The translations under genes and the position numbers were made by a program. The notes beneath the pieces are model-generated. The model made no database searches, was not told the DNA's origin, and saw nothing but the letters and a program-made list of their open reading frames with translations. This document shows positions 3,912 to 62,186 of a stretch of 64,000 nt of DNA, piece by piece. How positions within the stretch are numbered: position 1 is the first letter of the stretch; the number at the start of each line of letters is the position of its first letter. This DNA is from an uncultured Candidatus Berkelbacteria bacterium (GTDB lineage Bacteria > Patescibacteriota > UBA1384 > UBA12157 > JAENIV01). Location: NCBI GenBank assembly GCA_963698075.1, contig OY969116.1, forward strand, positions 313,010-377,009, in the 5' to 3' direction.

Positions 3912-5144
3912 TTAGGATGTGGCGATGCTAGCGTGCTCTTCGATACTAGCGTAAGGAAGGAAGGGCTCGACCCACTCCTCGACAGGTCTGGCGTCGAAGA
4001 TATTCCGGCGCAATAGCCGGTTGCCAACGGTTCCGATTGCCTGCTCCATCATCCAGACGGACTGGCGAGTGGCTTCCTCGATCTGCTGGTCAGTCACATA
4101 CTGGTTGATGTAATGGAGCCAGTCGTCCCCGTGGTCTCGCATTGCTGATTCCTTGGCCGCGTAGATCCCCTGTGCCCGGAAGACCGCGCGCTGGATCTCT
4201 TTATTCGCGGGAATCAGGTAATTGATATCACCTCGAGCGTAGGGAACTGCCAGGCGATTTTCATCGACCGTACAGGCGAAATCGCCGAAGCGTCCAGCGG
4301 CTTCCTCGACTTTGCCATCAATGTTGTCGATGCCCGCAGCCCGACAGAACGCGCGTTGATGATGGGCATTGCGCACTAACGTGGCCTGCCAGGCGGTGAA
4401 GGACAGATCGTCGAGATGCATGAAGCGCTGAGCTTCCTCGGGGGTGATGTCCTTATCGCCGGCCGGATCGTACTTTGCGTTGAAACTGATCGCCGGTTCA
4501 TCCATGAGGAATCCAGGGTTCGGAATCCGGTCGAGGTTGGCGTCGGCGAATACCTGCCGCATCTTGGGATCTTCCATGATTCCAGGAATCGCCCGAATCT
4601 CGTCGAGCCCGACGACCGTCTCGTCATAGGTCGCCAACTGCTCATAGCGATTCCCCATGCCCGCGGCGTTGAAGATCCGTTTGAATGTTGAGCTGCCGAG
4701 CGGGAAGCCGAACCGGAAGATGCATTCGGCGTCCGAGACGAAGGTCGTTATATGGCCGGCTGCGATGAGGCGGTGGTAGATGGCGCGGCTCTCGACAGTG
4801 AGAACGTCGCTGAGGATGTATGGGGTGGCCGCCAACCGCATAACCACCTTGTTGCTCTTCTCTCCTCGGTCAAGGAGAGTCCCGACGGTAACGACCTGGT
4901 CGCCATGATCCAGCATGCCGACGTAGGTGCTCCGGAACCCGGCCTTAGCCGCTTCTTCCCAGTAGTATGCCGCGGTCATCGCGAGGACATATCTCTTGCC
5001 ACGTATCTCCTGTGATGGAATCTTCTTCTTGAGATCGGCGACCGAGAAGCGCCCGCTGACGATCCACGGTCCGATGCCCAGGTACCAAAGCCCGGGCGCC
5101 ACGAATTGCGGCCAGGTTGGATCCAAGTCCTTGACGCTACCCAT
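3912..5144 (-). CDS. ATP-dependent purine-pathway-type ligase (PurP/FAICAR-synthetase-like or PurC-like); GC-rich, assignment uncertain
   Basis: 410 aa; segments YVLAMTAAYYWEEAAKAGFRSTYV and GMGNRYEQLATYDE resemble archaeal PurP (TIATLGSH..KGAKxEGFxTV; GARGGRGYFIA). Partial resemblance to SAICAR synthetase also noted. GC about 58% against the low-GC background. Confidence 0.3.
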   Translation of the reverse strand: MGSVKDLDPTWPQFVAPGLWYLGIGPWIVSGRFSVADLKKKIPSQEIRGKRYVLAMTAAYYWEEAAKAGFRSTYVGMLDHGDQVVTVGTLLDRGEKSNKVVMRLAATPYILSDVLTVESRAIYHRLIAAGHITTFVSDAECIFRFGFPLGSSTFKRIFNAAGMGNRYEQLATYDETVVGLDEIRAIPGIMEDPKMRQVFADANLDRIPNPGFLMDEPAISFNAKYDPAGDKDITPEEAQRFMHLDDLSFTAWQATLVRNAHHQRAFCRAAGIDNIDGKVEEAAGRFGDFACTVDENRLAVPYARGDINYLIPANKEIQRAVFRAQGIYAAKESAMRDHGDDWLHYINQYVTDQQIEEATRQSVWMMEQAIGTVGNRLLRRNIFDARPVEEWVEPFLPYASIEEHASIATS

Positions 5145-5163
5145 CGTTTCCTCCTTGCCTTTC

Positions 5164-5736
5164 CTAGCGTTGACCGGCTACCGCATTACCGGCCAAAACG
5201 ATGGCCTCATCCAAGAGTAGTACTTCGACCGGACGCGGCTTGGGAAGCTTGACCTCGGGGAGTTGTCCCTTGATGGCAAACCTGCAGGCACGCAAGAAAC
5301 CCTCGGATCCGACGAACGTGCGGATACCATCACCACTAACCACCTGGGTTCCTGGGACTTCCGTTATAGACAGCTTCGCTGCCAAGGTATGCTTGTTGTT
5401 GCTTGGATCTTCGAACGCTACTCCTACCACGATAATATGAGTGTCATTAAGAGAGTAGCGCAGATATGAATCGCATATCCCCGTGAGGTGATTTGCCCAT
5501 CCCGCCGCCGTTAACAGAACGTCGATTGGCGGCTTCATTTTGCTCAGAGACTCCAGATGAGCAAGCGTCTCCCGCGTTACACGATGGATGCTACTAGCCC
5601 GGATATCGATGAGCTCGATTTCCCCGTGCTTCTTGGCCGTTGCGAGCAACTGAAGGCCATCAAGGCACTGCTTGAGATCGGACTTTGAACCAACTATTAC
5701 AGCGATTCTTCTCATGCCGTGTTTTCCCTCCATCAC
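5164..5736 (-). CDS. PurE-like (AIR carboxylase / N5-CAIR mutase fold) protein, GC-rich
   Basis: IAVIVGSKSDL (GSxSD motif) and LLTAAGWANHLTG (AGxAAHLPG-like) match PurE-family signatures. Confidence 0.5.
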   Translation of the reverse strand: MMEGKHGMRRIAVIVGSKSDLKQCLDGLQLLATAKKHGEIELIDIRASSIHRVTRETLAHLESLSKMKPPIDVLLTAAGWANHLTGICDSYLRYSLNDTHIIVVGVAFEDPSNNKHTLAAKLSITEVPGTQVVSGDGIRTFVGSEGFLRACRFAIKGQLPEVKLPKPRPVEVLLLDEAIVLAGNAVAGQR

Positions 5737-6983: not shown

Positions 6984-7056
6984 GGGCGTTTAGCTCAGCA
7001 GTTAGAGCGCTACGTTCACATCGTAGAAGTCAGAGGTGCGAATCCTCTAACGCCCA
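6984..7056 (+). tRNA. tRNA-Val (anticodon CAC), no encoded CCA
   Basis: Cloverleaf built by hand: acceptor gggcgtt/aacgccc, D-arm gctc..gagc, anticodon arm ctacg-ttcacat-cgtag, T-arm agagg-tgcgaat-cctct. Confidence 0.9.
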
Positions 7057-14756: not shown

Positions 14757-15926
14757 ATGAGAAAATTAAAGATCGGCATTTTTACCGAATGTTATCATCC
14801 GGTACTCAATGGCGTGGTGGTTTCGATTGAAACTTTTCGTCAAGCCCTTGAAAAACGTGGGTTTGAGTTTTTCATTTTCACCACTCAATGTCCGGGTTAT
14901 CACGAAAAAAATGCCCGCGTCAGGCGATTTAACTCAATGATCCCCTTCCCGTCCAAAGGCGGACGTTATCCGATTGCCTGGCCGCAAATCGCCAGATTGC
15001 AAGCCCCACGCATCGCGCCATCAAATCTTGACCTCATTCACAGCCAGCATCTTTTGGGTATTGGTCATTTAGGTCTAAAAGTTGGCAGAATCCTAAAAAT
15101 TCCGACCATCCTCACTTACCACACCCTCTTGGCTGAATACACCCATTACGCGCCCGGAATAGGGGCAATTTTAAAATGGTATCTAATCCATGCCAGCCGA
15201 GAAATTTCCAACCAATACGATCGAATTGTCACCCCTTCACCATCGATGAAAAGGGTTTTACGTTCCTATGGCGTCAGACGTCCAATTGAACCCATCCCTA
15301 CCGGCGTTAATATTGCTGATTTTCAAAATCATTATTCAAAAGAGGAAATCAGAAAAAAATGGCAAATACCCGAGCACCAAAAAATCCTTCTTTACGTCAG
15401 CCGAATCGCCAAAGAAAAAAATCTTGACTTTCTCTTTGAATCTATTGAACGAATAGCTACCAAGCGTGATGATTTTCATCTTTTGATGGTTGGTGGCGGA
15501 CCAGAGCTTAAATACTATCAAGCAAAAATCCACGAGTGGCATCTGAAACCATTCGTCACTTTTACTGGAATGCAACCCAAAAAAGAAGCTAACCGTTTTT
15601 ATGGCGCGGCGGATATCTTTGTCTTCCCCTCAATCACCGAAACCCAAGGAATTGTGGTCACCGAAGCCATGGCTGCCGGTGTGCCGGCAGTGGCTGTCAA
15701 TCAAATGGGACCAAGCGATATTATCCAAGATGGGATTGACGGCTTTCTTGTGCCCTTGAAAACGGATGAATTTACTGCTAAAATAGAACTTCTGCTTGAC
15801 GATGATAACTTAAGAACCAGGATGGGCCGCGAAGCTCGCCAGAACGCTCGTAAGTTCTCAGTCGAAGCTTGCGCCCAGAAAATGGAAAAAATATATGAAA
15901 GAACCATCGATCATCACCGTTCCTAA
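14757..15926 (+). CDS. GT4 family glycosyltransferase
   Basis: ETQGIVVTEAMAAGVPAVAVN (EX7E-type motif) and GT-B layout; SD aaggatggg 5 nt before ATG 14757. Confidence 0.7.
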   Translation: MRKLKIGIFTECYHPVLNGVVVSIETFRQALEKRGFEFFIFTTQCPGYHEKNARVRRFNSMIPFPSKGGRYPIAWPQIARLQAPRIAPSNLDLIHSQHLLGIGHLGLKVGRILKIPTILTYHTLLAEYTHYAPGIGAILKWYLIHASREISNQYDRIVTPSPSMKRVLRSYGVRRPIEPIPTGVNIADFQNHYSKEEIRKKWQIPEHQKILLYVSRIAKEKNLDFLFESIERIATKRDDFHLLMVGGGPELKYYQAKIHEWHLKPFVTFTGMQPKKEANRFYGAADIFVFPSITETQGIVVTEAMAAGVPAVAVNQMGPSDIIQDGIDGFLVPLKTDEFTAKIELLLDDDNLRTRMGREARQNARKFSVEACAQKMEKIYERTIDHHRS

Positions 15927-17433
15927 TGAGAAACTTTCCGAGGCGACAAGTAAAGTCACCTCTTTTGTGCAAGATTCTAATGAGCTTAAAAAACAAATCC
16001 GAAATATGGTGGCAATCCTGCGCCAAGAAGGCGGTATTGGTCTGGCTGCTAACCAATTGGGTTATGATAATCAAGTCCTAGCTATTGAATTTAAGGAATC
16101 TGATCAAAAGTCTTCTAAAAAGTCCTCGAAAAAAAATGCGGAAAAGACGGAAATCCCTTTGACAATTTTTGTAAATCCCGAAATTGTCGAATACGGGAAA
16201 ACAATTGAATGCTTTGAAGAGGGATGTCTTTCGGTGCCTAAAATCGAACTTGAAGTTGAGCGGCCGACCCAAATTAAAATTAAATATCAAAACGAAAAAG
16301 GGAAAAAAATCAAAGCCGCCCCCAAAGGTTTGCTCGCCCGCATCCTTCAGCATGAAATTGATCATCTGGGTGGCATCATCTTTACCGAACGTGTCAGAGA
16401 GCAGTTTTTTCAAAAATACCCAGAGTTGAAAAAACTAAAAATCGCATTTTTCGGTAGCGGAGAGTTTGGGGCTATCATTTTAGAAGGTTTAATCTTACTT
16501 GGGCTGAATCTCGATATCTATACGGAAAAATCAAAACCGGCCGGCCGCAGCCAAGTAACTCGCGCGACGCCCGTGGCAGAAGTGGCTAAAAAGTTTGGAA
16601 AAGATTATTTTGAAGTAGAAGCGAGCCAAGTATCCTCAAAAGTAAATCGCGGAGGCGAGCCGCACGGACAAGGGCGAGCCGAGCGTTTAGACCCGATTTC
16701 CTCGCAGGGGAAATCGAGGTCGGTACTTTTGACGGATGCTGGCGAGCGACCATTTGATTCTCTCGTCTGTGTTGATTTTGGTCAAAAAATCCCCGAATCG
16801 ATATTAAAACAAGCCAAAATTGCCGCCCTCAATATTCATCCCTCGCTTTTACCAAAATATATCGGCCCGACACCAATTCAAACGGCGATACTTAATGGCG
16901 ATAAGAAAACTGGCGTGTCAATTATTCAAATGACCGATAAAATTGATCAAGGCCCGCTTTATTCCCAAATTGAAACGGAAATTCTCGAAAACGATACCAC
17001 ACCCCTTCTCCACGACCGCCTCGCCACTTTGGGTCTAAAATTATTAATCAAAACCTTACCCAAAATCGTCCGTGGCGAAATCGAAACTGTCAGTCAGGAT
17101 TTATCCAAAACGATAAGGACGCGCAAATTCACTAAAGCCAATGGTGAAATTGACTGGCGAAAATCCCCCAAAAAAATTGATGCCAAAATCCGCGCCTTTT
17201 CCCCTTGGCCGGGTTCGTATACCCGCCTGCCAGCGCCTGAAGCCGCAGGCAATGGCGGGCAGGCTTTCGTCGATAATAAACGCCTAATTATCCACAAAGC
17301 TCATATTAAAAAAGACAAATTAGTTCTCGACATAGTTCAGAGTGAGGGCAAAAAACCAATGAAATTTTCTGAATTTTTACGCGGCTTTCACGGTCCAAAA
17401 CCGGAGTGGTTTAGGAAAGTATTATTGACATAA
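15895..17433 (+). CDS. fmt: Peptide deformylase - methionyl-tRNA formyltransferase fusion (single 512-aa ORF)
   Basis: N-terminal GIGLAANQLG, EGCLSVP, QHEIDHLGG (PDF motifs). C-terminal IAFFGSGEFG ... NIHPSLLPKYIGPTPIQ ... WRK..FSPWPG (Fmt). No stop or start between the two parts. Overlaps the upstream GT4 gene by 32 nt. Confidence 0.75.
   Translation: MKEPSIITVPNEKLSEATSKVTSFVQDSNELKKQIRNMVAILRQEGGIGLAANQLGYDNQVLAIEFKESDQKSSKKSSKKNAEKTEIPLTIFVNPEIVEYGKTIECFEEGCLSVPKIELEVERPTQIKIKYQNEKGKKIKAAPKGLLARILQHEIDHLGGIIFTERVREQFFQKYPELKKLKIAFFGSGEFGAIILEGLILLGLNLDIYTEKSKPAGRSQVTRATPVAEVAKKFGKDYFEVEASQVSSKVNRGGEPHGQGRAERLDPISSQGKSRSVLLTDAGERPFDSLVCVDFGQKIPESILKQAKIAALNIHPSLLPKYIGPTPIQTAILNGDKKTGVSIIQMTDKIDQGPLYSQIETEILENDTTPLLHDRLATLGLKLLIKTLPKIVRGEIETVSQDLSKTIRTRKFTKANGEIDWRKSPKKIDAKIRAFSPWPGSYTRLPAPEAAGNGGQAFVDNKRLIIHKAHIKKDKLVLDIVQSEGKKPMKFSEFLRGFHGPKPEWFRKVLLT
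16621..16749. mobile_element. MITE-like element copy 2, 129 bp inserted in-frame within fmt
   Basis: GCGAGCCAAGTATCCTCAAAAGT ... ACTTTTGACGGATGCTGGCGAGCGA. Adds 43 codons (ASQVSSKVNRGGEPHGQGRAERLDPISSQGKSRSVLLTDAGER) between DYFEVE and PFDSLVCVDFG, the position where E. coli Fmt has a short linker. Confidence 0.5.
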
Positions 17434-25478: not shown

Positions 25479-26975
25479 TTAATTTATTCTCACCTGAAAT
25501 GTTACCGTTCCCGAACCCCCGGCAGCCAAAGTTCCTAAGTTCCAGATGACTTTGGTACCATCAAAAGTCCCACCACTACTAGCCGAACCAGTAACGTAAG
25601 TCGTGCCATTGGGGATAAAATCTTCAAATCTAACATTGGTGTAAGGATTAGTTGACCCATTAGAATAATTTAACGTATAGGTTAATATTCCCCCTGTTTG
25701 CGCGGTAATCTTATCGACAGACTTGGTAACAACCAATGGCCCTACACAGGGATTGGGATAAGAATTAGGAGATATGGCGTTATTAATCTTGCCTCCGCCT
25801 GCCAAGGCATTCCATAAAGCCGTTTGTTCATCAGTGTCCCAGGTCCAAAAAAGCGCACCCTTAAAACCGAAGTTGCAAATGGCCGCTAAATGACTTCGGA
25901 GCATCGCCGCCGCTTGATCAAGATTAGGGTAGGAATATTTCAAAGCGCCAAACTCACCCACAAGACGGGGCTTATCTTTACCCAGTAGTCCAATCTCGGC
26001 TGAATTTAAATCAAGAGTAAGATCGTAACTCGTTCCAAGTGGATATTGGTGAATATCAATAAGATCGAGGTTCGAATCATACAGCGCTGTTGGCCTAAAA
26101 GGTGATCTAGGATCGGGATGTTCCGAATTAGTCGGTGCCACTCCGTCAAAGCCATCGCGTCCGACAGCTTTAGGAGTAAAAACACTGGTCTCTACTAAAA
26201 CATTTGGGTCCATACTTTTGATACCTTCTGTCATTTGGTTAACCCAATATTTAGCACTATTATCGGCGGCTAGCTGACGGCTAGTCGTGCTTGCCATATC
26301 ATAAGTACCTCCTTCTGCTGGTGTGACAAGTCCACTTGTCATCGAAAATGGCTCGACATTCGACTCAAAACGTCCCTCATTCCAAGGATCCCAAGAAAAT
26401 ATTGTCGAAAGTAAACTTGAATCAGTATTTTTTATATATTCAACCAGGTCAATCATCATCTCTTTATAGGCGACAACATATCTCTGACTCATAAAGATAG
26501 TATTTACCCCTCCGCCCTCGGCGTGAGGAGTCGGCGGTAAAGACCAGACAAAATAATAGTAATTCGAAGGTAACCATTCAGTTGTAATAATCACATAGAT
26601 TCCATGGGCGCGGGCACGCCTCATAAAATCAAGAAGATTGGTCATATAAGCTGGGTCAACTCCTGGCACTGTCAAGGCGCCGCCAAGGACTCTGGTATCG
26701 AGGAAAACACGCGTGATGTTATAGCCATTGTTTTGCATTTGTCCTAATGCCAGCTCTGATCTGGCTGCATCATAGCTTCCCGGATTAAACAAATTATGAT
26801 AGCCGTCGATCGCATCAAGCCGAATATAATTGTTGCCCCTTGGAGTAAAAGTGTTACCGGTCACGGTATCATAAAACTCTCCGTAATGATCAGCACCAAC
26901 TCTCGTGCCGATACGATGAGAAACTAAATCTTCGGCCAAAACTGCCTTAATATGGTATTTGGCCGGAAATATCAA
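25479..26975 (-). CDS. Glycoside hydrolase family 5-like enzyme with C-terminal Ig-like (DUF11-type) domain; apparent TTG start
   Basis: (beta/alpha)8-type motifs NEGR, GEFG. C-terminal TYTLNYSNGS...GSGTVTFQVRI domain shared with 27041-29287. No in-frame ATG between the upstream stop and TTG 26975. Confidence 0.6.
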   Translation of the reverse strand: MIFPAKYHIKAVLAEDLVSHRIGTRVGADHYGEFYDTVTGNTFTPRGNNYIRLDAIDGYHNLFNPGSYDAARSELALGQMQNNGYNITRVFLDTRVLGGALTVPGVDPAYMTNLLDFMRRARAHGIYVIITTEWLPSNYYYFVWSLPPTPHAEGGGVNTIFMSQRYVVAYKEMMIDLVEYIKNTDSSLLSTIFSWDPWNEGRFESNVEPFSMTSGLVTPAEGGTYDMASTTSRQLAADNSAKYWVNQMTEGIKSMDPNVLVETSVFTPKAVGRDGFDGVAPTNSEHPDPRSPFRPTALYDSNLDLIDIHQYPLGTSYDLTLDLNSAEIGLLGKDKPRLVGEFGALKYSYPNLDQAAAMLRSHLAAICNFGFKGALFWTWDTDEQTALWNALAGGGKINNAISPNSYPNPCVGPLVVTKSVDKITAQTGGILTYTLNYSNGSTNPYTNVRFEDFIPNGTTYVTGSASSGGTFDGTKVIWNLGTLAAGGSGTVTFQVRIN

Positions 26976-27040
26976 AAGAGTACCAATTAAATATATTGTC
27001 AGTAAAGATGTAGTAAATTGTTTTGTTTGAATAATTTTAC

Positions 27041-29287
27041 TTATTGTACTCTCACTTGAAATGTCATGTTTCCACTAGCGCCAGCAGCCAGATTTCCCAG
27101 ATTCCAAATCACTTTATTATTGGGCTGATCATAAGTGCCATTGTTGGTGGCCGAACCAATCACATAGGTGGTCCCCGTGGGAATTGGGTCTTCGATGCGC
27201 GTGTTGGTGACTGCTTGACTACCATTAGTATAGGATAAAGTGTAGGTTAAAGTATCGCCTGAAGCCGCTTGGGTTTTGTCAACGGATTTAGAGAGAGTTA
27301 TTGTTGGAGTTGTGCCACCAGGCAGAATAAAAATATGATCCGCGCCACCAGATTCTCCACTTGAATCTTTGGAAAAGACTCGGAAATGGTAGAGTGGAGC
27401 AACCAGCCCAGTCAACTGTAATGAATGATTGGTGGTGGAGGTTGCGTCAGTCTTTGTTTGACCATAATTAGTGGTTTCACCATAATCAACTTTCGAATCT
27501 GAAGCTTTATCAGTTTGCCAGATAATAGTGGCAGTTTTGGCGGCTGAATCAACCGCTGCGATTACATTGGAGATAATTGGCGCTTGATTGGTTGCGCCTA
27601 AAACTATGGTCATCTCTTTGGAATTTGTCATGTTAAGACTTGGTAATGTAAATGTTGGCAGACTCGATTTCGAAACCGTAATGTCGTGAGGTGTATAGCT
27701 GGTTTTGGTTGGCGTTGTACCGCCCAAAACATTGCCTTGTTGAAAATACTCGGTTAGCTCTAATCTCGCCCGGCCACTCGAATCTGTCGTTGCCGTGGGA
27801 CTTTCCGTGCCTCCTCCTTTGGCCACGGCCGAAACAGTTGCTCCGGAGACAGCGTTACCTGCATTATCTTTAACTAAAGTATCCAAATACCACTTAAAAT
27901 ATAAGCTGTATGTTCCACCGCCACTTTGTGAAGTTTGAACAATATCATGAACATCGGCTCCATTGAGAACTTTAGTATCAATAAAAATCTCATTTTTAGC
28001 AGCATAATTCGAGAAACCTTCGCCAATGGTGTGATAATTAATTGGACTATCGCCTTTAATTAGGGTATTGGAGCTAAAGACAAGGCCATCAGCTCCTTGA
28101 CCATCGTAGGTGCTGAATTGAATATTAATGTTGTTGCTGGTAATAGTATTATTATAGATTTTCGAACCGGTATTGGCAGCAACATAGCCGGCAACCGCTA
28201 TCCCATAGGCATATTTGGGTTTGGTTGAAGGAGTGATTATCGCTTTAATATTGTTGTTATAAAATTCATTATTGAGGTTTGATGGGCCATCATAAATCCC
28301 TATACCAGCTGCCTGATCGACTAAACCATCACCAGTTTGCGTCGTAATGTCATTGTCATGAACTTTTAAATTATAAGAATTTGTCCCCGGTGGAATTCGA
28401 CATTTAATTCCCCAGGCAAAATAGCCAGAGCCATATTCTGATTTTGGACCCATCTGAACATTAATTGTATTGGAATAAACCTCAACATCTTGGACTTCAT
28501 TATCAACCAAAATTCCCAAACCATCAGTCGTGTGAATATAATTTTCATAAACTTTGGTACTATGTGGCTTATATAAGGCAACACCGAAACCATTGCTGTC
28601 AACCGCTTTATGGTTAATGTCATTGCGGTAGACGCGGCTGTTAGGAGCAGTGGTATTAAAAGCAATGCCGCCATGGCCACCAATAATTTTATTATCATGA
28701 ATATCATAATTCTGACCTTGTTGGACTTGGAGGGCATAACCATCATAGGCCATCCGGTTGCCGATAGCGGCGACGCTGCTTCGAAAAATATTATCATGAA
28801 TGCTCAGATTGATTGTTCCTCTTTCGTTAACCGAGGTTGAAGAATTACCCCGGACTGAAACATCCAGACCACTGAGTTCAACATTCCTTGGATTAGTGTT
28901 GTAAATATAGATCGCATAGCTGTAAGTTGAAGTGCCTTGTTGAACAATTTTACCGTTTTTAAGCTTAAAGCCGTTATCATCCAAATTGACCCAGTGGCTG
29001 GCATCACCAATGGTCACTCCTGAAAGACCATTTGTGCCTGATGAGGCCGTATCAAAATTAATTGTCTTGCCATTCAAATCCAAAACAATCCCTGTGGCTG
29101 TAATCGTAAAACAGGTCCCGGTCGCTGAAACATCTTGATCTAAAATATAGGTCGTATTGGCTTGGGAAAGCAGTCCGCAAGCGGAAATGTGGACTTCGGC
29201 CGCTTGGGCTTTGGGAATCTTAAAACCCAAAGAAACAGCCAAAAGAACCATAAGCGCGATGATAAAAGTGAAAACATATTTCTTCAT
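27041..29287 (-). CDS. Secreted right-handed parallel beta-helix protein with the same C-terminal Ig-like domain
   Basis: Signal peptide, repeated PbH1-like HDN/NNTI turns, C-terminal TYTLSYTNGS...GNMTFQVRV. Confidence 0.55.
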   Translation of the reverse strand: MKKYVFTFIIALMVLLAVSLGFKIPKAQAAEVHISACGLLSQANTTYILDQDVSATGTCFTITATGIVLDLNGKTINFDTASSGTNGLSGVTIGDASHWVNLDDNGFKLKNGKIVQQGTSTYSYAIYIYNTNPRNVELSGLDVSVRGNSSTSVNERGTINLSIHDNIFRSSVAAIGNRMAYDGYALQVQQGQNYDIHDNKIIGGHGGIAFNTTAPNSRVYRNDINHKAVDSNGFGVALYKPHSTKVYENYIHTTDGLGILVDNEVQDVEVYSNTINVQMGPKSEYGSGYFAWGIKCRIPPGTNSYNLKVHDNDITTQTGDGLVDQAAGIGIYDGPSNLNNEFYNNNIKAIITPSTKPKYAYGIAVAGYVAANTGSKIYNNTITSNNINIQFSTYDGQGADGLVFSSNTLIKGDSPINYHTIGEGFSNYAAKNEIFIDTKVLNGADVHDIVQTSQSGGGTYSLYFKWYLDTLVKDNAGNAVSGATVSAVAKGGGTESPTATTDSSGRARLELTEYFQQGNVLGGTTPTKTSYTPHDITVSKSSLPTFTLPSLNMTNSKEMTIVLGATNQAPIISNVIAAVDSAAKTATIIWQTDKASDSKVDYGETTNYGQTKTDATSTTNHSLQLTGLVAPLYHFRVFSKDSSGESGGADHIFILPGGTTPTITLSKSVDKTQAASGDTLTYTLSYTNGSQAVTNTRIEDPIPTGTTYVIGSATNNGTYDQPNNKVIWNLGNLAAGASGNMTFQVRVQ

Positions 29288-38023: not shown

Positions 38024-38052
38024 TTGACTAGCTATCAAAAAAGTGCTATAAT
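38024..38052 (+). promoter_or_regulatory. Consensus sigma70-like promoter TTGACT-17 bp-TATAAT for ssrA
   Basis: TTGACT 38024-38029, 17-bp spacer, TATAAT 38047-38052, 10 nt upstream of tmRNA 5' end. Confidence 0.5.
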
Positions 38053-38062
38053 TTTAAGCGAT

Positions 38063-38365
38063 GGGGCTATCAAGCTTCGACGGGAAACAATTTGACAATT
38101 TCAAGTCGAGAAGGCTACGAACCTCGCAAAATCCGTGGCAAACACTAAACGCTAACAAGCAATTAGTACCTGCCTTAGCCTAATAGGCTAATGCACGTCG
38201 TTCCATTTGTTGGTTGACCGAATGGAAACGGCGCCAACCGTCAACCTCTGGGGATGGAAGATCGTCCTGGTACTATCCTTGAAACAAACGAGGGCAAATG
38301 CTAAGCTTGTCAACGATTATCAAAGAGTTTTTCGGACGGGAGTGCGATTCTCCCTAGCTCCACCA
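38063..38365 (+). ncRNA. ssrA: tmRNA (ssrA), short form with encoded CCA
   Basis: 5' GGGGCUAUCAAGCUUCGACGGG and 3' GGACGGGAGUGCGAUUCUCCCUAGCUCCACCA match tmRNA tRNA-like-domain consensus. Internal frame gct aac aag caa tta gta cct gcc tta gcc TAA TAG (tag ANKQLVPALA). Confidence 0.8.
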
Positions 38366-40335: not shown

Positions 40336-41403
40336 CTATTCTTCGAACTCGATTTCGCGGACCGCCTTTCCCGAGGCCTTGACGATACCAAGACCATGCG
40401 TTTCCCCATAGCCACCTTTCTTGACGACGACGGTGTGGATGCTTGAACCAGCAATGAGCTTAGCGCAACTCAGACAGGGTATGGAGTTGACGTAAATGGT
40501 GGTGCCGGCGACCGGGATCCCGACATTGGCCGCCGTCAGAAACGCCATTTCTTCAGCATGAATCGCTCGACAAACCTCAAGCATTTGTCCCGACGGGATG
40601 CCTCTTTCATCCCTTTCGCAGCCCACGTCGGCACAAAGTTCCGAACCGGGATATTGGCCATTGAAACCTGTCGCAATCACCCTCAGCTCCTCGGGGATGG
40701 CAATCACGCAGCCGTATCGCCGGGTCTGACCCACGAGATATCCCTGTTCGTCTCGAGGGAAACTACCATCAGCAGCACGCTGACAACCCCTAACGCAATT
40801 AGAAAGCCGAGAGGTGGCCACGACAATCCCCATGAAGTAGCGATCCCGGCGAGCAATCTCTCTTTGGTATTCTTCAGTACCGAGACCAACGCCTGTCAAA
40901 CCCGTCGAACCAAATCCACCTATCCCCCTCATTGTTGGTGGTAACTCCTCTGCTGTCGCCACCTCAAGCAGATCAGGAATTTCCACCTGTGAAAAGATAA
41001 GCTGAGCAACACGCATCTCAGGCTCGATGGTAAACGGCTGACGGCCACGGTTAACCAAGAGACACCCCGCCTCGCCGCGGAAGTCCGGATCAATCGTTCC
41101 AGGACTGTTTCCCAGTTCAATTCGGTGCTTGGTTGCCAAACCGCTTCGCGGTCGCACTTCAACCTGGTGACCCCAGGGAAGAGCCATCGCAAAGCCAACA
41201 CCAATCAAAATGGCATCGTCAGGAAGAATTGTTACTGGTAGTTCCTCTCTCACTTCTCGTGTGTTTGGATCAAGAACTCGAGAGGCAAAGACATCATAGC
41301 CGATAGCCCCGGGGCTTGCCCTCACTGGCAACCGAGCATCAGGACGAACCTTCCAAACTCGAATACTTCCCAGCACTTCCGGCATCTTCCTTCCTCCACT
41401 CAA
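40336..41403 (-). CDS. Bifunctional dUTPase - dCMP deaminase fusion, GC-rich
   Basis: N-terminal GAIGYDV ... RSGLA ... GTIDPDFRGE ... GFGSTG (dUTPase). C-terminal HAEEMAF ... PCLSCAKL (cytidine/dCMP deaminase zinc motifs). GC far above background. Confidence 0.7.
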   Translation of the reverse strand: MSGGRKMPEVLGSIRVWKVRPDARLPVRASPGAIGYDVFASRVLDPNTREVREELPVTILPDDAILIGVGFAMALPWGHQVEVRPRSGLATKHRIELGNSPGTIDPDFRGEAGCLLVNRGRQPFTIEPEMRVAQLIFSQVEIPDLLEVATAEELPPTMRGIGGFGSTGLTGVGLGTEEYQREIARRDRYFMGIVVATSRLSNCVRGCQRAADGSFPRDEQGYLVGQTRRYGCVIAIPEELRVIATGFNGQYPGSELCADVGCERDERGIPSGQMLEVCRAIHAEEMAFLTAANVGIPVAGTTIYVNSIPCLSCAKLIAGSSIHTVVVKKGGYGETHGLGIVKASGKAVREIEFEE

Positions 41404-42223: not shown

Positions 42224-43243
42224 CTAACTTCTCAATTTCCTAATTTCCGGCCACTCTTGAATTAAAACCGATATTGCCGCCGCAATTGGCACGGCAATCA
42301 AAACGCCCAAGATGCCCATAAGTTTAGCGCCCACCAGTAAAGCTAAAATAATGATCACTGGCGAAAGTCCCACCGCCTTACCCATTACTTTCGGGGCTAA
42401 AAACTGAGCTTCCAATTGTTGAATGACCAAATAAGCAATAAAAATCAATAAAGCTTTTAGGGGCGAAACCGTTAAGGCAACCAAAAAAGCCGGTATCAAC
42501 CCTAACCAAGGTCCAATATAAGGGATGACCTCAGTAATCGCTCCCCAAACAGCTAGAACTAAAGCATAAGGAATTCCCAAAGCGAGTAAGGCAACTGCAT
42601 CTAAAACTCCGATGATGACCATCAGTATGGCTTGACCTCTGAGCCATCCTCCCATTTTGCCGCCGATTTTTCTTAAAATTTCAAAAATTTTTTCTTTTTG
42701 GGTAAAAGGAAGAGTCTGCTCTAAAAATTTCTTTAAAGATTCTTGTTCCAAAAGCATATAAAAAGCCAAGACTAAAATTGTCAAAAAAGCCACGACCCCG
42801 GTAATAAAACCGACGGTCGTCGAATAAATTCCTGAGCCCAAACGACCCAATTGCGAGGAAATATTAAATAATCCTTCTTGGTAATTGCTGATCGAATTTT
42901 GAATCGTCTGATAAAAGGGTCCCAATTTAGATAAAATCGTCGGTAAATTGATGGCCAATAATTGAAGCTGGTGGACAATCGGCGGGATGATTAAATAACC
43001 TATGCCCCCCAAAACGCTCAAGAAAACCAAAGAAAATATAATCACTGCCAAGACCCGAGGCATTAATTTGGCCAGCCAATCAACAATTGGACCAAAAGCG
43101 GCGACAATGACCAAGACAATAAAGAAGAGGACGACAATATCACGGATGGCATATATAAACCAAACGGCAAAAACCGCCAAAATTAGCTTGATAATTGTTG
43201 ACGTCGAAATTTCAAATTTTATCCGGTCAGCATGCTTTTCCAT
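42224..43243 (-). CDS. AI-2E family transporter (PerM/YdiK-like)
   Basis: About 8 TM helices with the characteristic conserved loop ...LRGQAILMVIIGVLDAV... of the UPF0118/AI-2E family. Confidence 0.7.
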   Translation of the reverse strand: MEKHADRIKFEISTSTIIKLILAVFAVWFIYAIRDIVVLFFIVLVIVAAFGPIVDWLAKLMPRVLAVIIFSLVFLSVLGGIGYLIIPPIVHQLQLLAINLPTILSKLGPFYQTIQNSISNYQEGLFNISSQLGRLGSGIYSTTVGFITGVVAFLTILVLAFYMLLEQESLKKFLEQTLPFTQKEKIFEILRKIGGKMGGWLRGQAILMVIIGVLDAVALLALGIPYALVLAVWGAITEVIPYIGPWLGLIPAFLVALTVSPLKALLIFIAYLVIQQLEAQFLAPKVMGKAVGLSPVIIILALLVGAKLMGILGVLIAVPIAAAISVLIQEWPEIRKLRS

Positions 43244-43304
43244 CTTTAGTTCTACTTTATTCTAACAGGTAAAAGGTGAAAAAACAAGATTTTTAAGCTC
43301 GAGG

Positions 43305-43333
43305 TTGACTTTTGGGTCATTTTATGGTATAAT
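43305..43333 (+). promoter_or_regulatory. Consensus TTGACT-17 bp-TATAAT promoter upstream of the GC-rich beta-propeller gene
   Basis: TTGACT 43305-43310, TATAAT 43328-43333, then an 80-nt GC-rich hairpin-containing leader and ggaaagg SD. Confidence 0.45.
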
Positions 43334-43415
43334 CTCTAGGTTGTACCTGAAAAACCGGGTGTATCCCGGATAAAGCCTTGCGCCCCGAGGGGACAAGGCG
43401 GAAAGGCATTGAGCG

Positions 43416-44411
43416 ATGAAGCACAGCTCGGTCGTACTGATGGTTCTGGCGTTGGTCTTGTTGTGTATGATGGCCTGCAGCGCGGTGATGGCGTACGTTC
43501 CAGACTACCCCCCTATCTCTGAATCGCTGGCAGGAAGAACCCTCGCCCTCGCGGCGGTGCCCGCGGGCTCGATCGCACCCGTGCCGCAGGTCTTCGTCTG
43601 GCAGTATGGACGCCAGCCGGTCCAGATCACCAACTCCCGATGGGCCGTTACCCATCCGCGCTGGTCACCCAACGGCCACCTCCTTGCCGTCAACGACGGC
43701 AACCAGGTGGCGACGATCAACCTCGCCAACGGCAGAGAGACCATCGTCGTACCCGGTCCCCGCAAGTTCCTGGGAGACTGGTCATCGGATGGCCGTTTCC
43801 TCTGCTACACGGCGTTGACGTGGGTCCCGGAGTGGGACGACTTCTTCTTCCCGCGCGTCTGGTACGTGGACGTTCACACCAAGAAGAACTTCCAGATCCC
43901 GGACCATGGTGTGGACCAGCGCAATCCCACCTGGGGGGCCGACGGCACCATCGCCTACGAAGAGTGGGAGGGGGTCCCGCCGGTGATCAAGGGCTACAAC
44001 CCTTACACCGGCGAAGAGAAGCCCCTGGTGCCGATCGATGAGAAGTTTCATGGAGCGGAGAATCCGGTCTGGACCCCCGAGGGCGATCTTTACTACAACA
44101 ACTGGCCGCCCTACACCGACACCAACAAGATCTTCTTGGTTACAAACGAGGAGATCCCGGGCCGCGGCGACCCCGTCACCCACAACCTATGGGAATGGGG
44201 TGAGGACACGCCGGAACTGGCGACTGCCGAGGGTGACCTGTTCTACTACTCCCTGGGTCAGAACCAGTACACCACCTACCACTTCTTCCGCGACCGTTTC
44301 GGCACGCTGTGGGGCCTTGATCACATCATCGGCCTCGACTACTGGTGCGGATCAATCACCATCACCCAGAGCCAACCGATCCACCGCCGTTACTGGCGAT
44401 GGCGCCGATAA
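43416..44411 (+). CDS. Secreted (possible lipoprotein) TolB-like beta-propeller protein, GC-rich
   Basis: Signal peptide with LLCMMAC. Repeated PD40/WD40-like blades (PRWSPNGHLLA, DWSSDGRFLCY, PTWGADGTIAYEE, PVWTPEGDLYY). GC about 60%. Confidence 0.5.
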   Translation: MKHSSVVLMVLALVLLCMMACSAVMAYVPDYPPISESLAGRTLALAAVPAGSIAPVPQVFVWQYGRQPVQITNSRWAVTHPRWSPNGHLLAVNDGNQVATINLANGRETIVVPGPRKFLGDWSSDGRFLCYTALTWVPEWDDFFFPRVWYVDVHTKKNFQIPDHGVDQRNPTWGADGTIAYEEWEGVPPVIKGYNPYTGEEKPLVPIDEKFHGAENPVWTPEGDLYYNNWPPYTDTNKIFLVTNEEIPGRGDPVTHNLWEWGEDTPELATAEGDLFYYSLGQNQYTTYHFFRDRFGTLWGLDHIIGLDYWCGSITITQSQPIHRRYWRWRR

Positions 44412-44435
44412 CTATCACCGCACACTCAGACATGA

Positions 44436-44466
44436 ACGGCGGTCCACCCGGACCGCCGTTTCTTTA
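44436..44466 (+). terminator. Rho-independent terminator
   Basis: acggcggtcc-accc-ggaccgccgt then ttctttat. Confidence 0.5.
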
Positions 44467-44486: not shown

Positions 44487-45569
44487 TTATTCATCCGCCA
44501 AACGAAATCTTAAGACCGAAATCACTAACGTCACCACAATCCATACGAGTACTATTATTATATTAACTGGATTAGTAAAAGGTGATGAATTTTCTAAGCC
44601 GACCTGACGAATCATACGAAGTAAGGGTGCTAAGGGTAAATATTGGACAATACTGAAAAGCCATTTTGGTAATTGATCAATCGGAAAAAATACGCCGGCC
44701 AAAAACATCATCGGAATACTAATCGCTACTGACATTCCTTGAGCGGCGTCAACGGTTTTGGAAGCCGACGCCACGGCAAAACCAATTGATTGAAAAAGCA
44801 AACCGCCAAGCAAGGAGATTAGAACAATTAGCCAGAGGCTGCCCACAATGTGAGCATTAAAACCCCAAATACCGATGGCCAGAATCAGTGATATTTGGAT
44901 AATATTAACCACTAATCTCGACATCACCTCAGCGAAGACAAACTTCCATGGCTTGAGAGGCGTTGTTGTAATTCTTTTTAGGATTTTATCTTGACGATAG
45001 CGAGCCATGGTAATGGCGATTCCCTGAATCGAACCATTCATCAGCGCCAAACCAATAATCCCAATAAGAACAAAATCAAAATAAGTCAAATTTTTATCAG
45101 TCAGGGTTTCATTTTTTACCGAATAAATTGGTCGGGCATTTTGGATTTGAAAATTAACATTATTTAAAAATTTATCCAAAAATCCGGCAACCGCTAAATT
45201 AGCTTGAGCGTTAGAGGGATCGTTGATAAAAATTATTTGGGTGGGTGCACCAGGTTTAGGATTACCAAAATCTCGAGGAATTTCCACCACTGCTGTCACT
45301 TTATTTTTCTTTAAGAGATCTTTGCCAGCATTAACATCTTGTTCTTTTTGAATCTTAAAAATACCCGAATCAGTCATTGTTTTTTCGATTGTCGCCGCCA
45401 GCTCACTGTTGGAATTATTAATTAAGGCGACGGTCCCCACATTAGTATTATTGCCGCCGAAAAAAAGCCCAAAAATAATCGTGAACATCAAGGGGAAAAA
45501 CAAGCTCCAAAAAAGCGCCTGTCGGCCGCGAACTAACATTTTTAGGTTGGCGATAAATAGTCGAAACAT
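44487..45569 (-). CDS. ABC-2 type transporter permease
   Basis: N-terminal TM, large extracytoplasmic loop, then 5 TM helices. Confidence 0.6.
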   Translation of the reverse strand: MFRLFIANLKMLVRGRQALFWSLFFPLMFTIIFGLFFGGNNTNVGTVALINNSNSELAATIEKTMTDSGIFKIQKEQDVNAGKDLLKKNKVTAVVEIPRDFGNPKPGAPTQIIFINDPSNAQANLAVAGFLDKFLNNVNFQIQNARPIYSVKNETLTDKNLTYFDFVLIGIIGLALMNGSIQGIAITMARYRQDKILKRITTTPLKPWKFVFAEVMSRLVVNIIQISLILAIGIWGFNAHIVGSLWLIVLISLLGGLLFQSIGFAVASASKTVDAAQGMSVAISIPMMFLAGVFFPIDQLPKWLFSIVQYLPLAPLLRMIRQVGLENSSPFTNPVNIIIVLVWIVVTLVISVLRFRLADE

Positions 45570-57914: not shown

Positions 57915-58024
57915 CCACTGAGCTACAGGGGCATCAAGTAAATTATACCAGATAACCATTTGATGAAAAAGAGACCCAGCCCCCCCCAAGTGGGGGCTGG
58001 GTCTTCGGCAGGCCGCGATTGAAA

Positions 58025-58756
58025 CTACCACCAGTCGACGGCCTGGGATACTTCGACCTCCTCCCCCTCATCGATACTAAAATGGACCGGCAGGGTAAGG
58101 GCTGCGTAGGGCCCCCATCCCAGCGACACCGTATAGCTGCCGGCAAAGAGCTCGGGCCAAACGGCCTGGCCCGAGGAGTTGGTGTAATGATACTCCTCCA
58201 CATGGAGGAGTCCCCCTAGTGTCAATCCATCCAACCAAACCAGGACGCCCGGCGCGGGAGCGCCAGACTCATCGGTCACTGTTGCGGTCACCCTCGAGTA
58301 CTCGCACACATCGAGGGCAACGACGTGGATTTCGCCGGGGGTGCCGGCGAAGTCGATGGTCGCCGTATCTCCATCCTGGCGAAGTCCATCGACCTGCATA
58401 AAGGTCCACCAGTCAGAGGGAAGCTGGAAGATAACCCTCCATTTCCCTCTCGACGCCCTTACCTCAACCGGCGTCGAATACCTCTTGGTCTTTCCGTCGG
58501 GGTTGATGACCCACACCCGCCAGGCGAGCCATTGCTCGCCTAGATCTAGATCCAGGACGAAGTCCAGGTCCTTGTCATCCAAGACTCGGACCTGAAGCTG
58601 AGGCCAAGACGGTCCTCCCTTCTTGAGGGGAACCGCCGGCCCTGCCATCGCACTTGAGGCGATGGCGCAGAGCAACATCGACACTACCAGGAACTGCAAT
58701 ACAGCACCAACCCTTCGTCTCGACATCTTCGGACCCCTCCGTGCCAGTATCCCCAA
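58025..58756 (-). CDS. Secreted GC-rich protein with Ig/prealbumin-like (CarboxypepD_reg-like) C-terminal domain
   Basis: Signal peptide (AVLQFLVVSMLLCAIASSAMA). SGAPAPGVLVWLDG...TNSSGQAVWPELFAGSYTVSL. GC about 65%. Confidence 0.4.
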   Translation of the reverse strand: MGILARRGPKMSRRRVGAVLQFLVVSMLLCAIASSAMAGPAVPLKKGGPSWPQLQVRVLDDKDLDFVLDLDLGEQWLAWRVWVINPDGKTKRYSTPVEVRASRGKWRVIFQLPSDWWTFMQVDGLRQDGDTATIDFAGTPGEIHVVALDVCEYSRVTATVTDESGAPAPGVLVWLDGLTLGGLLHVEEYHYTNSSGQAVWPELFAGSYTVSLGWGPYAALTLPVHFSIDEGEEVEVSQAVDWW

Positions 58757-58892
58757 AACTTCTCTCGGGGGTGGAACTCAGCCTAAATGCCCCTCATCTC
58801 TCCTTTCTCCCTCCTCACCAAATTGTAAAAATCCCAAACCTGGCCACATTATATCGAGAATTTATATAAAAGTCAAGAGTAAGATACCTTAT

Positions 58893-60743: not shown

Positions 60744-61820
60744 TTATCCGACGCTTCCCAGATCGGCGTTGCGCAAGTCTTCGGCGGCATGCTCAGGTGT
60801 GCGGGGATTGATGTAGGCGCCCGAGCCCTTCTCGAGGGCCGCCAGAATTGCTTCGGTGATTGGTTCGATCTGACAATGCCAATGATAGGTCTCTAGCTCA
60901 GTGTCGGTGGGAGGGGCAGTGTGGAAGTAGAGGTTGTAGTCAGGGTCGTTGAGTGTTACCCGAATCCTCTTCAGCGTCTCCTGTAGCAACAAGGCGAATT
61001 CCGTCAGAAGGTCGGCTCCTTGAGGATGGGTCGAGATGTTGGCAAAGTAGCTCTGGTGATACCGCGGTCCCACAATAACCTGATAAGGCGTCCTTGAGGT
61101 GAAGGGACACCAAGCCATGAAGTTTTCGGTGACATTGATCAACCGTTCCTTGGCAAGCAGTTCCCAATCTCTCTCCTCACAGTAGAAACAGGAGCGATTC
61201 AGGTCATAATAGTGCCGGGCGCCTGCCAACTCATGGTAGATCCGCGCTGGCAATGTCGGTAGCGCCACCAACTGGCTGTGGGGATGGGGTTGGCTGGCGC
61301 CAGCGAGCGGTCCATAATTCTTGAAGAGAAAGATGCAGTGGATGTTCCGTTTACTTCCGATTGCCAAGGTCATCTCCCGCCACATGTGCAAGACTTCGCG
61401 GAAGTAGAAGGGGTCGAGAGTCTCAAGAGCAACATCGTGTCGAGGTGATTCGATGATGACATAGTGGAAGCCGAAAGCCGGCAATACCGTAAACGGTCCA
61501 CGCTTCTCCACCACCAGAATCTCTGAAGGAATCGAGGCGTTCACTGCCGGCGCTAGGTTCGGTACGACTCTCACCCACCAGCCAGGATTGTCTGCCTTCG
61601 TCTCTTTAGCACGATAGGAACTTACTTCCTTCGGGGTCTGGCTCTCCCGACCCTCTTCGAAAGAACACTCTTCGCCGCTGACGAGGCGCGGGTTGAACCT
61701 GGACCAATCGCGCTCTTTCTGCCGCCGTAACTTCTCCAACGGCTTCTCCCGGTCTGAACCGATGATCACCAGCGTCCCCGAAATCGGGTTCCTTCTTAGC
61801 TCTTCCACACGACCTGGCAT
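60744..61820 (-). CDS. galT: Galactose-1-phosphate uridylyltransferase-like (GalT/HIT superfamily) protein, GC-rich
   Basis: SQPHPHSQL matches the GalT HPH active-site motif. CFYCE..C/H zinc-site-like residues. ATG 61820 with aggagg SD. The track ORF's upstream 71 residues read through tRNA-His and are artifactual. Confidence 0.55.
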   Translation of the reverse strand: MPGRVEELRRNPISGTLVIIGSDREKPLEKLRRQKERDWSRFNPRLVSGEECSFEEGRESQTPKEVSSYRAKETKADNPGWWVRVVPNLAPAVNASIPSEILVVEKRGPFTVLPAFGFHYVIIESPRHDVALETLDPFYFREVLHMWREMTLAIGSKRNIHCIFLFKNYGPLAGASQPHPHSQLVALPTLPARIYHELAGARHYYDLNRSCFYCEERDWELLAKERLINVTENFMAWCPFTSRTPYQVIVGPRYHQSYFANISTHPQGADLLTEFALLLQETLKRIRVTLNDPDYNLYFHTAPPTDTELETYHWHCQIEPITEAILAALEKGSGAYINPRTPEHAAEDLRNADLGSVG

Positions 61821-61924
61821 CACAGGCCTCCTTGTACCAAAAAGAACCAGTCCTTCTGGTCCTCGTGGTTTTGTCAAAGGTCTACGATAACCACAATAGA
61901 CCTTATACTTTAGTTTGTCAAGAT

Positions 61925-62000
61925 TGGGGTGGCTGACGCGATTCGAACGCGCGACCGCTCGGGCCACATCCGAGTGCTCTACCACTGAGCTACAGCCACC
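61925..62000 (-). tRNA. tRNA-His (anticodon GTG) with encoded G-1 and CCA
   Basis: rc g-gtggctg-ta-gctc-agtggta-gagc-a-ctcgg-atgtggc-ccgag-cggtc-gcgcg-ttcgaat-cgcgt-cagccac-c-cca. Confidence 0.85.
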
Positions 62001-62186
62001 ATATATAAAATGAATCTGCCTTTTGAAGGCCAAATCTCAAATTCTTGCTGATAAATCAATAAATCCCTAAACTACTACTTTTTACGGGACGCCAACCACC
62101 AAATCAGGGCAACGACGACGACGGCAATGACTACCCACCAATACCAAACCATTAAAATCTCCTTTCATTATCATTATACCATTAAT

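Follow-up and report, generated by a model that had tools for sequence, protein, structure and literature searches.

Six-bladed beta-propellers built from PD40 repeats are found as the C-terminal domain of TolB (Escherichia coli TolB, Protein Data Bank (PDB) entries 1c5k, 2hqs and 2w8b; Acinetobacter baumannii TolB, 7mx5), as parts of S9 peptidases such as DPP-IV, of tricorn protease and of LpqB (Pfam Gmad1), where they are joined to catalytic or other domains, and as a stand-alone protein in Atu1656, a "putative TolB" of unknown function from Agrobacterium tumefaciens (PDB 2ojh). Here we analyze a gene for such a protein, the propeller gene at 43305-44466 on the plus strand of a 64,000-nt stretch of DNA (the window) from an ultra-small, Berkelbacteria-like bacterium belonging to the candidate phyla radiation (CPR, Patescibacteria). 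Its product shares the PD40 six-bladed fold with the TolB propeller domain but is only ~16-18% identical to it, lacks the TolB_N domain and a tol-pal operon, comes from a CPR host and has a family-specific C-terminal third. Unlike the propellers of the peptidases and LpqB, it stands alone; Atu1656 resembles it in this respect, but is 15% identical, comes from a diderm proteobacterium and has no functional annotation to transfer.

We propose that the gene encodes an exported, stand-alone binding propeller that is highly expressed, occupies an old, dispensable and variable chromosomal slot, and has a maintained, elevated GC content. We put the probability of this joint reading at roughly 60%. 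Seven positional homologs of the gene, counting the one in the window, fall into two types: type A in the window and in loci L001, L005, L006 and L007, and type B in L009 and L027. An eighth locus, L008, has the slot empty. The features of the transcription unit and its flanks in the window are:

43305-43333, plus strand: sigma-70-type promoter, with the -35 element TTGACT (43305-43310), a 17-nt spacer and the TG-extended -10 element TGGTATAAT (43325-43333).
43340-43415, plus strand: 5' untranslated leader of ~76 nt from the inferred transcription start, with hairpins at 43355-43369 and 43375-43399.
43416-43493, plus strand: signal peptide, amino acids 1-26, MKHSSVVLMVLALVLLCMMACSAVMA, with predicted cleavage after VMA (residues 24-26).
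43494-44411 (including the stop codon), plus strand: mature protein of 305 amino acids, ~35 kDa, pI 5.2, a predicted stand-alone six-bladed PD40/TolB-type beta-propeller.
44434-44466, plus strand: intrinsic terminator, with a 12-bp stem (44434-44461; 8 GC pairs), a 4-nt loop and a T-rich tail.
42224-43243, minus strand: left flank, AI-2E family transporter (PF01594; Pfam was run on the orthologous neighbors), divergent from the propeller gene and 57-86% identical across relatives.
44487-45569, minus strand: right flank, ABC-2 type permease, whose gene closes an ATP-binding cassette (ABC) transporter operon.

The propeller open reading frame (ORF; 43416-44411) encodes 331 amino acids, as a preliminary description of this DNA had reported, and an in-frame TGA 6 nt 5' of the ATG fixes its start codon. 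The TTGACT-17-TATAAT promoter described earlier is confirmed; it agrees with the consensus at 11 of 12 positions and has the TG extension (TGgTATAAT). The pattern TTGAC-N18-TATAAT occurs three times in the window versus 0.10 expected, a count reached by none of 100 shuffles, with the remaining two copies preceding the transfer-messenger RNA (tmRNA) gene and a second GC-rich gene for a secreted protein. Because the propeller promoter is of the same rare class as that of tmRNA, expression of the propeller is probably high. The tmRNA gene lies at 38024-38365 on the plus strand, encodes the tag ANKQLVPALA and has a promoter against which the likely strength of that of the propeller can be gauged. 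TTGAC, TATGgTAtAAT and the downstream AGGTTGTACCTGA are kept in 7/7 positional homologs, types A and B alike.

The preliminary description also pointed to a hairpin-rich leader of ~80 nt. Two hairpins are indeed there, but the leader folds unexceptionally (minimum free energy -30.5 kcal/mol, z-score -1.5, with ortholog leaders at -1.2, +0.4, +0.1 and -2.3), and hairpin positions are not conserved, the ortholog leaders folding differently. Rfam scans of the unit with gathering and E-value thresholds returned nothing credible, one sub-threshold small RNA match overlapping the terminator. We rejected a riboswitch or structured leader on these three grounds: no credible Rfam match, ordinary folding and unconserved hairpins. 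Read on the minus strand, the hairpin at 43355-43369 is followed by TTTTT and scores as terminator-like, and L005 has an equivalent hairpin and T-run; this site could keep transcription that runs antisense out of the ABC operon from reaching the AI-2E promoter (TTGTTT-16-TAGAAT, ~43262-43289, minus strand).

At the other end of the gene, the terminator folds at -23 kcal/mol (z -6.1) and is as strong as first described; hairpins with differing stem sequences lie 3' of all orthologs tested (z -4.6 to -7.6). With consensus promoter elements, their 17-nt spacing, and a GC hairpin with T-tract all kept in orthologs, the propeller gene is, judged by its sequence elements, a monocistronic and self-contained transcription unit, in line with the preliminary description. 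Two antisense ORFs, at 43505-43765 and 43782-44183, had been set aside there as GC artifacts, and rightly so: they are products of a stop-poor, GC-rich stretch, the non-coding frames of the propeller gene holding 4-17 stops versus 11-28 in the AT-rich AI-2E gene. A GC-rich non-coding RNA was rejected as well, given that nonsynonymous divergence (dN) is well below synonymous divergence (dS), that PD40 homology is found at the profile level and that the signal peptide is conserved. As far as sequence comparison can tell, purifying selection acts on the propeller protein.

All seven positional homologs begin with a positively charged n-region, a hydrophobic core (mean hydropathy 2.7-3.7) and an A-x-A-type cleavage site. 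Export was judged by a rule-based test for Sec and signal peptidase I (a charged n-region, a hydrophobic region of at least about 12 residues, and small residues at -3/-1). The window protein has a positive n-region and a core with a mean Kyte-Doolittle value of 3.5, the signal peptides of the orthologs end in AYA, AFA, ALA, AFA, LMA and FAA, and structure prediction models the segment as an N-terminal helix (residues 2-26 in a first model, 3-26 in a second). The secretion claimed in the preliminary description therefore holds, whereas the possible lipobox named alongside it, LLCMMAC, is non-canonical and its Cys is lacking in most orthologs. A membrane-anchored lipoprotein made through that motif could point to Cys17 and Cys21, which the window protein has in its signal region. 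However, the canonical lipobox [LVI][ASTVI][GAS]C matches 0/7 homologs, a Cys in the signal region is absent in 4/7 and misplaced in the others, the Cys columns are unconserved, and the A-x-A signal peptidase I site is kept in all, making a lipoprotein very unlikely. We infer that the precursor is a substrate of Sec and of signal peptidase I.

The mature protein is acidic, Met-free, Cys-poor and Lys-poor, rich in Pro, Gly and Trp and also described as Arg-rich, and it closes with a basic, Trp/Arg-rich tail, HRRYWRWRR. PF07676 (PD40) scores 20.0 bits against the window protein, with a gathering cutoff of 20.9, and matches all four other type-A homologs faintly; the type-B positional homolog passes at 52.6 bits. 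At E ≤ 1e-3, a profile built from the family matches 15,615 PD40-type proteins; at E ≤ 1e-10 the number is 504. The repeated blade matches are limited to positions ~50-230. An AlphaFold2 model from a 38-sequence alignment (predicted local distance difference test score, pLDDT, 75; predicted template modeling score, pTM, 0.73) has a confidence of ~90 over residues 40-230. Its six blades are an N-terminal blade and five PD40-like motifs, and the strands start at residue 41, ~15 residues past the signal peptide. The PD40/WD40-like blades first noticed in the sequence are thus borne out by the family profile and the six-bladed model, even with the Pfam score of the window protein under its cutoff. 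Invariant motifs specific to the family mark the C-terminal third, along with the Trp/Arg tail, and are without counterpart elsewhere. Being a six-bladed PD40 propeller with profile-level homology to PD40 proteins, it is a new and very narrow family within the known PD40 propeller superfamily.

The best structural matches of the model are to TolB, a viral fold library returned generic propellers only, and weak TolB sequence matches extend over two blades. These are the points in favor of an ordinary TolB, the periplasmic part of the Tol-Pal system. Against it, the TolB equivalog model TIGR02800 scores 22.6 bits with a cutoff of 343.15, and NF002183 12 bits with a cutoff of 405; PF04052 (TolB_N) does not match the window protein even at E 10; the protein has 331 amino acids versus ~400-440 for the TolB entries compared; and no tolQ, tolR, tolA, pal or cpoB gene is among the neighbors in any locus examined, where AI-2E transporter, methyltransferase, ABC-2 transporter and dUTPase-deaminase genes are found instead. 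The host, too, is a Berkelbacteria-like CPR bacterium, and to our knowledge such bacteria are not known to have an outer membrane. A TolB identity, extremely improbable in our estimate, is already refuted by these family-membership comparisons. The preliminary description had considered a protein without a signal peptide whose homologs would mark it as an ordinary periplasmic TolB; a signal peptide is present and the TolB comparisons fail.

The fold also raises the possibility of a secreted enzyme on a six-bladed propeller, whether glycosidase/sialidase-like, lactonase-like or peptidase-associated, and not a passive binder. We consider an enzyme quite unlikely. We instead favor a binding role. 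In the mechanism we propose, the gene would be transcribed from its near-consensus, TG-extended sigma-70 promoter, probably at a high level, and transcription would end at the strong intrinsic terminator. Sec would export the 331-aa precursor, and signal peptidase I would cleave it at about residue 26, as the rules predict, releasing an acidic 35-kDa six-bladed propeller without a catalytic or a TolB N-terminal domain. By analogy with TolB-type propellers, the released protein would most likely be extracellular and serve as a platform that binds a ligand, be it a peptide, a protein or part of the envelope, and the Trp/Arg tail possibly retains it on the anionic cell surface. The propeller would then be an abundant, variable extracellular binding protein.

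The gene is very rare. Four propeller homologs, at 54-68% identity, came out of a word-indexed search covering 5.8 billion clusters, and HMMER, run exhaustively over 1.84 billion representatives, returned a single full-length cluster. No propeller match came from plasmids, from phages or, when the family alignment was used as query, from GTDB representative genomes. The AI-2E neighbor has its best GTDB matches in metagenome-assembled genomes of Candidatus Berkelbacteria and Patescibacteria (57-74% identity, plus a partial match at 79%), which identifies the host lineage. The GTDB scan with this neighbor also brought to light the empty site and the slot with type B. All four homologs share one arrangement, AI-2E permease (minus strand), propeller (plus strand) and ABC-2 permease (minus strand), and all four have a TTGAC-17-TATGgTAtAAT promoter and a strong terminator. 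The type-A homologs have a GC content of 0.56-0.64 in loci of 0.39-0.41, the short L007 contig excepted. In L006 the propeller and ABC-2 genes have an additional ORF of 218 amino acids (GC 0.45) between them. An assembly chimera was rejected, as the same arrangement appears in at least seven independent assemblies.

Proteins flanking the slot are 62-80% identical among the seven genomes. The related metagenome-assembled genome of L008 has the AI-2E and ABC-2 genes ~110 bp apart with no propeller between them, and because L008 is sister to the carrier L006 in a tree of the flanking proteins, loss of the propeller is the simpler reading. The propeller gene is not co-oriented with its neighbors and is missing from L008 where both are intact, so there is no sign of a joint function with the ABC-2 or AI-2E protein.

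Although the slot is fixed, its content is not. The type-B propellers (L009:4859-5854, P0154; L027:6001-6987, P0155) have 319-331 amino acids, depending on the start codon, and a GC content at third codon positions (GC3) of 0.66-0.70. They share with type A the slot, the orientation, a homologous promoter, a similar length, a signal peptide, the PD40 fold and high GC, and the DNA of the two types can be aligned over the promoter and the initial transcribed sequence (TTGACttt...TATGgTAtAAT.tC.AGGTTGTACCTGA). The proteins themselves, however, are ~22% identical overall (34% in the best local alignment, with an hhalign probability of 97%), and type B differs in having canonical PD40 repeats and another C-terminus without the Trp/Arg tail, forming a 2-member family of its own. 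Flank and gene do not track one another: the flanks of the type-A locus L001 are 0.70-0.71 identical to those of type-B carriers, versus 0.64-0.70 to those of other type-A carriers. Type A is itself a mosaic. The nearest relative of the window gene changes along the alignment: in columns 30-110 it is L005 (0.78), which is also nearest in the flanks, whereas in columns 190-260 (roughly residues 186-255 of the window protein) it is L001 (0.68), with L005 at only 0.43 and L005, L006 and L007 sharing 0.78-0.85 with one another. The propeller locus looks, at the sequence level, like a dispensable, recombining locus with deeply divergent alleles, a pattern known for surface-exposed proteins. In L027, a gene for a serine recombinase (Resolvase; L027:330-1877) lies at a distance of ~4 kb from the slot, adjoined by a nucleoside-diphosphate kinase gene (L027:2382-2834) with GC 0.60 and GC3 0.74.

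A locus of this sort brings to mind surface-layer (S-layer) genes, which typically have strong promoters, stabilizing leaders and cassettes swapped between strains, slpA of Clostridioides difficile being an example. From general knowledge, slpA-type cassettes likewise combine one promoter and locus with divergent alleles discordant with their flanks and with mosaicism. The propeller could accordingly be a major envelope structural protein, S-layer-like or a coat, undergoing allelic cassette replacement, its high GC stabilizing a long-lived, abundant mRNA. Several features agree with this: a consensus promoter of the class it has in common with tmRNA, a monocistronic gene with hairpins near the 5' end of the leader and a strong terminator, an acidic, Met-free and Cys-poor mature protein, and two deeply divergent types behind one promoter, with type A mosaic. 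Yet at 35 kDa the propeller would be a small S-layer protein and it has no known anchoring domain, a surface-layer role is unsupported and the gene is dispensable, being absent from L008; the GC anomaly has no counterpart in slpA, and literature searches link no PD40 propellers to CPR surface layers. We consider a structural coat role unlikely. Searches of the literature for GC-rich genes in Berkelbacteria or Patescibacteria, for S-layer propellers in CPR bacteria and for PD40 in Patescibacteria returned nothing specific.

The composition of the gene is the second unusual feature of the locus. The preliminary description gave ~63% GC for this DNA; the ORF measures 61.5% (GC 0.615) in a window of GC 0.424. 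Its GC3 of 0.822, versus an ORF median of 0.39, is the highest among the 57 large ORFs tabulated for composition, and GC at first and second codon positions (GC1 and GC2) is raised too. At two-fold codons, C/(C+T) is 0.85 and G/(G+A) 0.83, with the genes for ribosomal protein L20 and the neighboring genes at 0.13-0.39 and 0.19-0.27, and the Lys codons AAA/AAG stand at 0/8. Ordinary translational selection for C-ending codons was rejected, as L20 is host-like and purine-ending codons are shifted equally. Small as this genome is, the window has tRNA genes (at 6984, 49914, 49991, 50172 and 57686) with C34, namely Val-CAC, Arg-CCG, Arg-CCT, Pro-CGG and Lys-CTT, and their presence means that the G-ending codons of GC-rich genes, for example the exclusive AAG for Lys, can be decoded without wobble.

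Such a composition would be expected of a recent horizontal import from a high-GC donor, still unameliorated, that landed by or captured a host promoter. Besides the GC3 contrast and the raised GC1 and GC2, this explanation has on its side a Lys-poor, Arg/Pro/Trp-rich product like the proteins of high-GC organisms, a compositional boundary directly downstream of the AT-rich promoter, the empty site of L008, and several other GC-rich genes in the window that look acquired. Age speaks against it. The same gene, promoter and slot occur in five type-A and two type-B assemblies whose flanks are only 62-80% identical, synonymous sites are nearly randomized, with retention as low in the gene as in the flanks, and the sister position of the empty-site genome to a carrier favors loss. 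No full-length homolog exists outside these genomes among the 1.84 billion representatives and no donor was found. The slot has no integrase or transposase, no tRNA flank and no convincing direct repeat; the only flanking repeat, of 11 nt (43269/44575), is at about chance level and is unconserved in L005. We also rejected a mobile element, for want of plasmid or phage matches, mobility genes or convincing flanking repeats. A recent import is therefore improbable, and of the foreign composition claimed in the preliminary description the atypical GC stands but recent arrival does not: the slot is fixed across at least seven assemblies, the synonymous sites are nearly randomized and no donor was found in the databases searched.

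The age of the composition can be assessed from the type-A ortholog pairs. Their proportion of synonymous differences (pS) is 0.61-0.74, as in the flanks, and identical amino acids use the same codon at a frequency of 0.40-0.52, versus 0.35-0.48 expected under full randomization. Alone, this same-codon argument for saturation overstates the case, because under a four-fold-site model the site identity of the propeller is by itself compatible with neutral decay from a 100%-GC ancestor; the argument rests on calibration against retention in the flanks and has modest power. Observed four-fold retention, with both lineages keeping the ancestral base, reaches 0.03-0.17 in the propeller; the flanks have 0.04-0.18, with upper 97.5% bounds of 0.11-0.24. 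If the composition had decayed neutrally toward the host equilibrium used in the test (four-fold GC ~0.38-0.52), a retention of 0.21-0.32 would be required in the six pairs also compared with the flanks, even for an ancestor with 100% G/C at these sites. GC at four-fold sites (GC4) is 0.55-0.82 in the propeller versus 0.36-0.55 in neighboring genes. Because observed retention is below that required, the propeller genes of the window, L005 and L006 (GC4 0.72-0.81) lie above the GC expected from neutral amelioration. Taken with the GC-rich type-B alleles and the lack of a donor, the retention test points to an old acquisition whose composition has been maintained. We conclude that the GC-richness, on the evidence of these alignments, is probably old and maintained by a force specific to the gene, and is not the mark of a fresh import. 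Such a force could be selection at the mRNA level, conversion biased toward GC where the locus recombines, or recurrent import out of a pool as yet unsampled.

Several points weigh against our proposal of an exported binding propeller in a variable slot with maintained GC. In the model, residues 235-288, in the C-terminal third, have a confidence below 50. The ribosome-binding site of the propeller gene in the window is weak relative to those of its orthologs, and both the strength of the promoter and the export of the protein are deduced from sequence motifs. Types A and B could be independent replacements and not the result of divergence in place. Finally, L001 and L007 (GC4 0.55-0.65) are borderline compatible with neutral decay, and the amelioration test uses ~100-115 sites per pair and a simple F81 model, with modest power.

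The propeller gene is not the only gene of its kind, nor the only GC-rich one. Related cassettes and other GC-rich genes are:

57972-58876, minus strand: second cassette, with promoter TTGACT-17-TATAAT (58876-58848), a leader of ~90-120 nt, ORF 58025-58756 and a terminator with a 13-bp stem (58004-57972).
L009:3793-4686, minus strand: third cassette instance, in the slot of the type-B genome SPRUCE_560; GC 0.55, 297 amino acids, signal peptide.
3912-5736, minus strand: genes for a purC-like divergent protein of 410 amino acids and a purE/AIRC-like protein, with GC3 0.73 and 0.59.
40336-41403, minus strand: dUTPase-dCMP deaminase fusion, GC 0.54, GC-elevated also in L001 and in the propeller-less L008.
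60744-62033, minus strand: GalT-like protein, GC3 0.62.

ORF 58025-58756 of the second cassette (GC 0.60, GC3 0.71) directly follows an ABC-2 transporter operon and encodes a signal peptide and a weak CarboxypepD_reg-like domain. Its product is an ORFan, the sole database match being itself (P0274, on a 929-kb contig). The L009 gene has its own TTGACG-17-TATAAT promoter and a terminator, and its product has no Pfam or NCBIfam match. The purC/purE-like, dUTPase-deaminase and GalT-like genes encode cytoplasmic enzymes, each with a strong hairpin terminator 3'. Persistently GC-rich genes make up ~10% of the window.

Exact-sequence look-ups of the propeller and AI-2E products in the protein/contig collection found neither on record; for the product of the second cassette, also encoded in this window, the collection has a record at 100% identity. 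Either the propeller and AI-2E genes are called differently or left uncalled in the source record, or the matching record is from a different strain; since the AI-2E neighbor is likewise off record, the absence of the propeller says little about gene calling. Elsewhere in the window, a single 512-aa def-fmt fusion (15895-17433, plus strand) combines peptide deformylase (PF01327) with methionyl-tRNA formyltransferase (PF00551, PF02911). Two ORFs of 498 and 748 amino acids (25479-29287, minus strand; GC3 0.37-0.38) end in DUF11 repeats, one of them with Big_1/CarboxypepD_reg-like segments, and are likely further surface proteins, of ordinary host composition.

A broader hypothesis can be built on the cassettes: that the propeller, ORF 58025-58756 and the second L009 gene belong to a class of monocistronic genes of this Berkelbacteria clade with consensus promoters and strong terminators, encoding abundant, fast-changing surface proteins for contact with a host or partner, whose GC is actively maintained against an AT-biased equilibrium, by mRNA selection or GC-biased conversion, and is not a scar of import. 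We offer it tentatively and think it doubtful as a whole.

CPR bacteria are thought to live attached to other cells, and their surface and attachment proteins are largely unknown. With a strong promoter, predicted export, restriction to one lineage and deeply divergent alleles at one locus, the propeller is a candidate interface protein of these bacteria. What is unusual about it is evolutionary: two deep alleles behind one promoter in a fixed slot, and a long-lived GC anomaly in a CPR genome. The persistence of its GC4 despite synonymous turnover challenges the assumption that atypical composition marks recent, decaying transfer, and makes the propeller a small, tractable system in which selection and biased gene conversion can be weighed as forces holding single genes off the genomic composition. 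If the class of surface genes with maintained GC is real, it would be a bacterial case of amelioration theory failing for specific genes and a candidate source of CPR envelope and attachment proteins.

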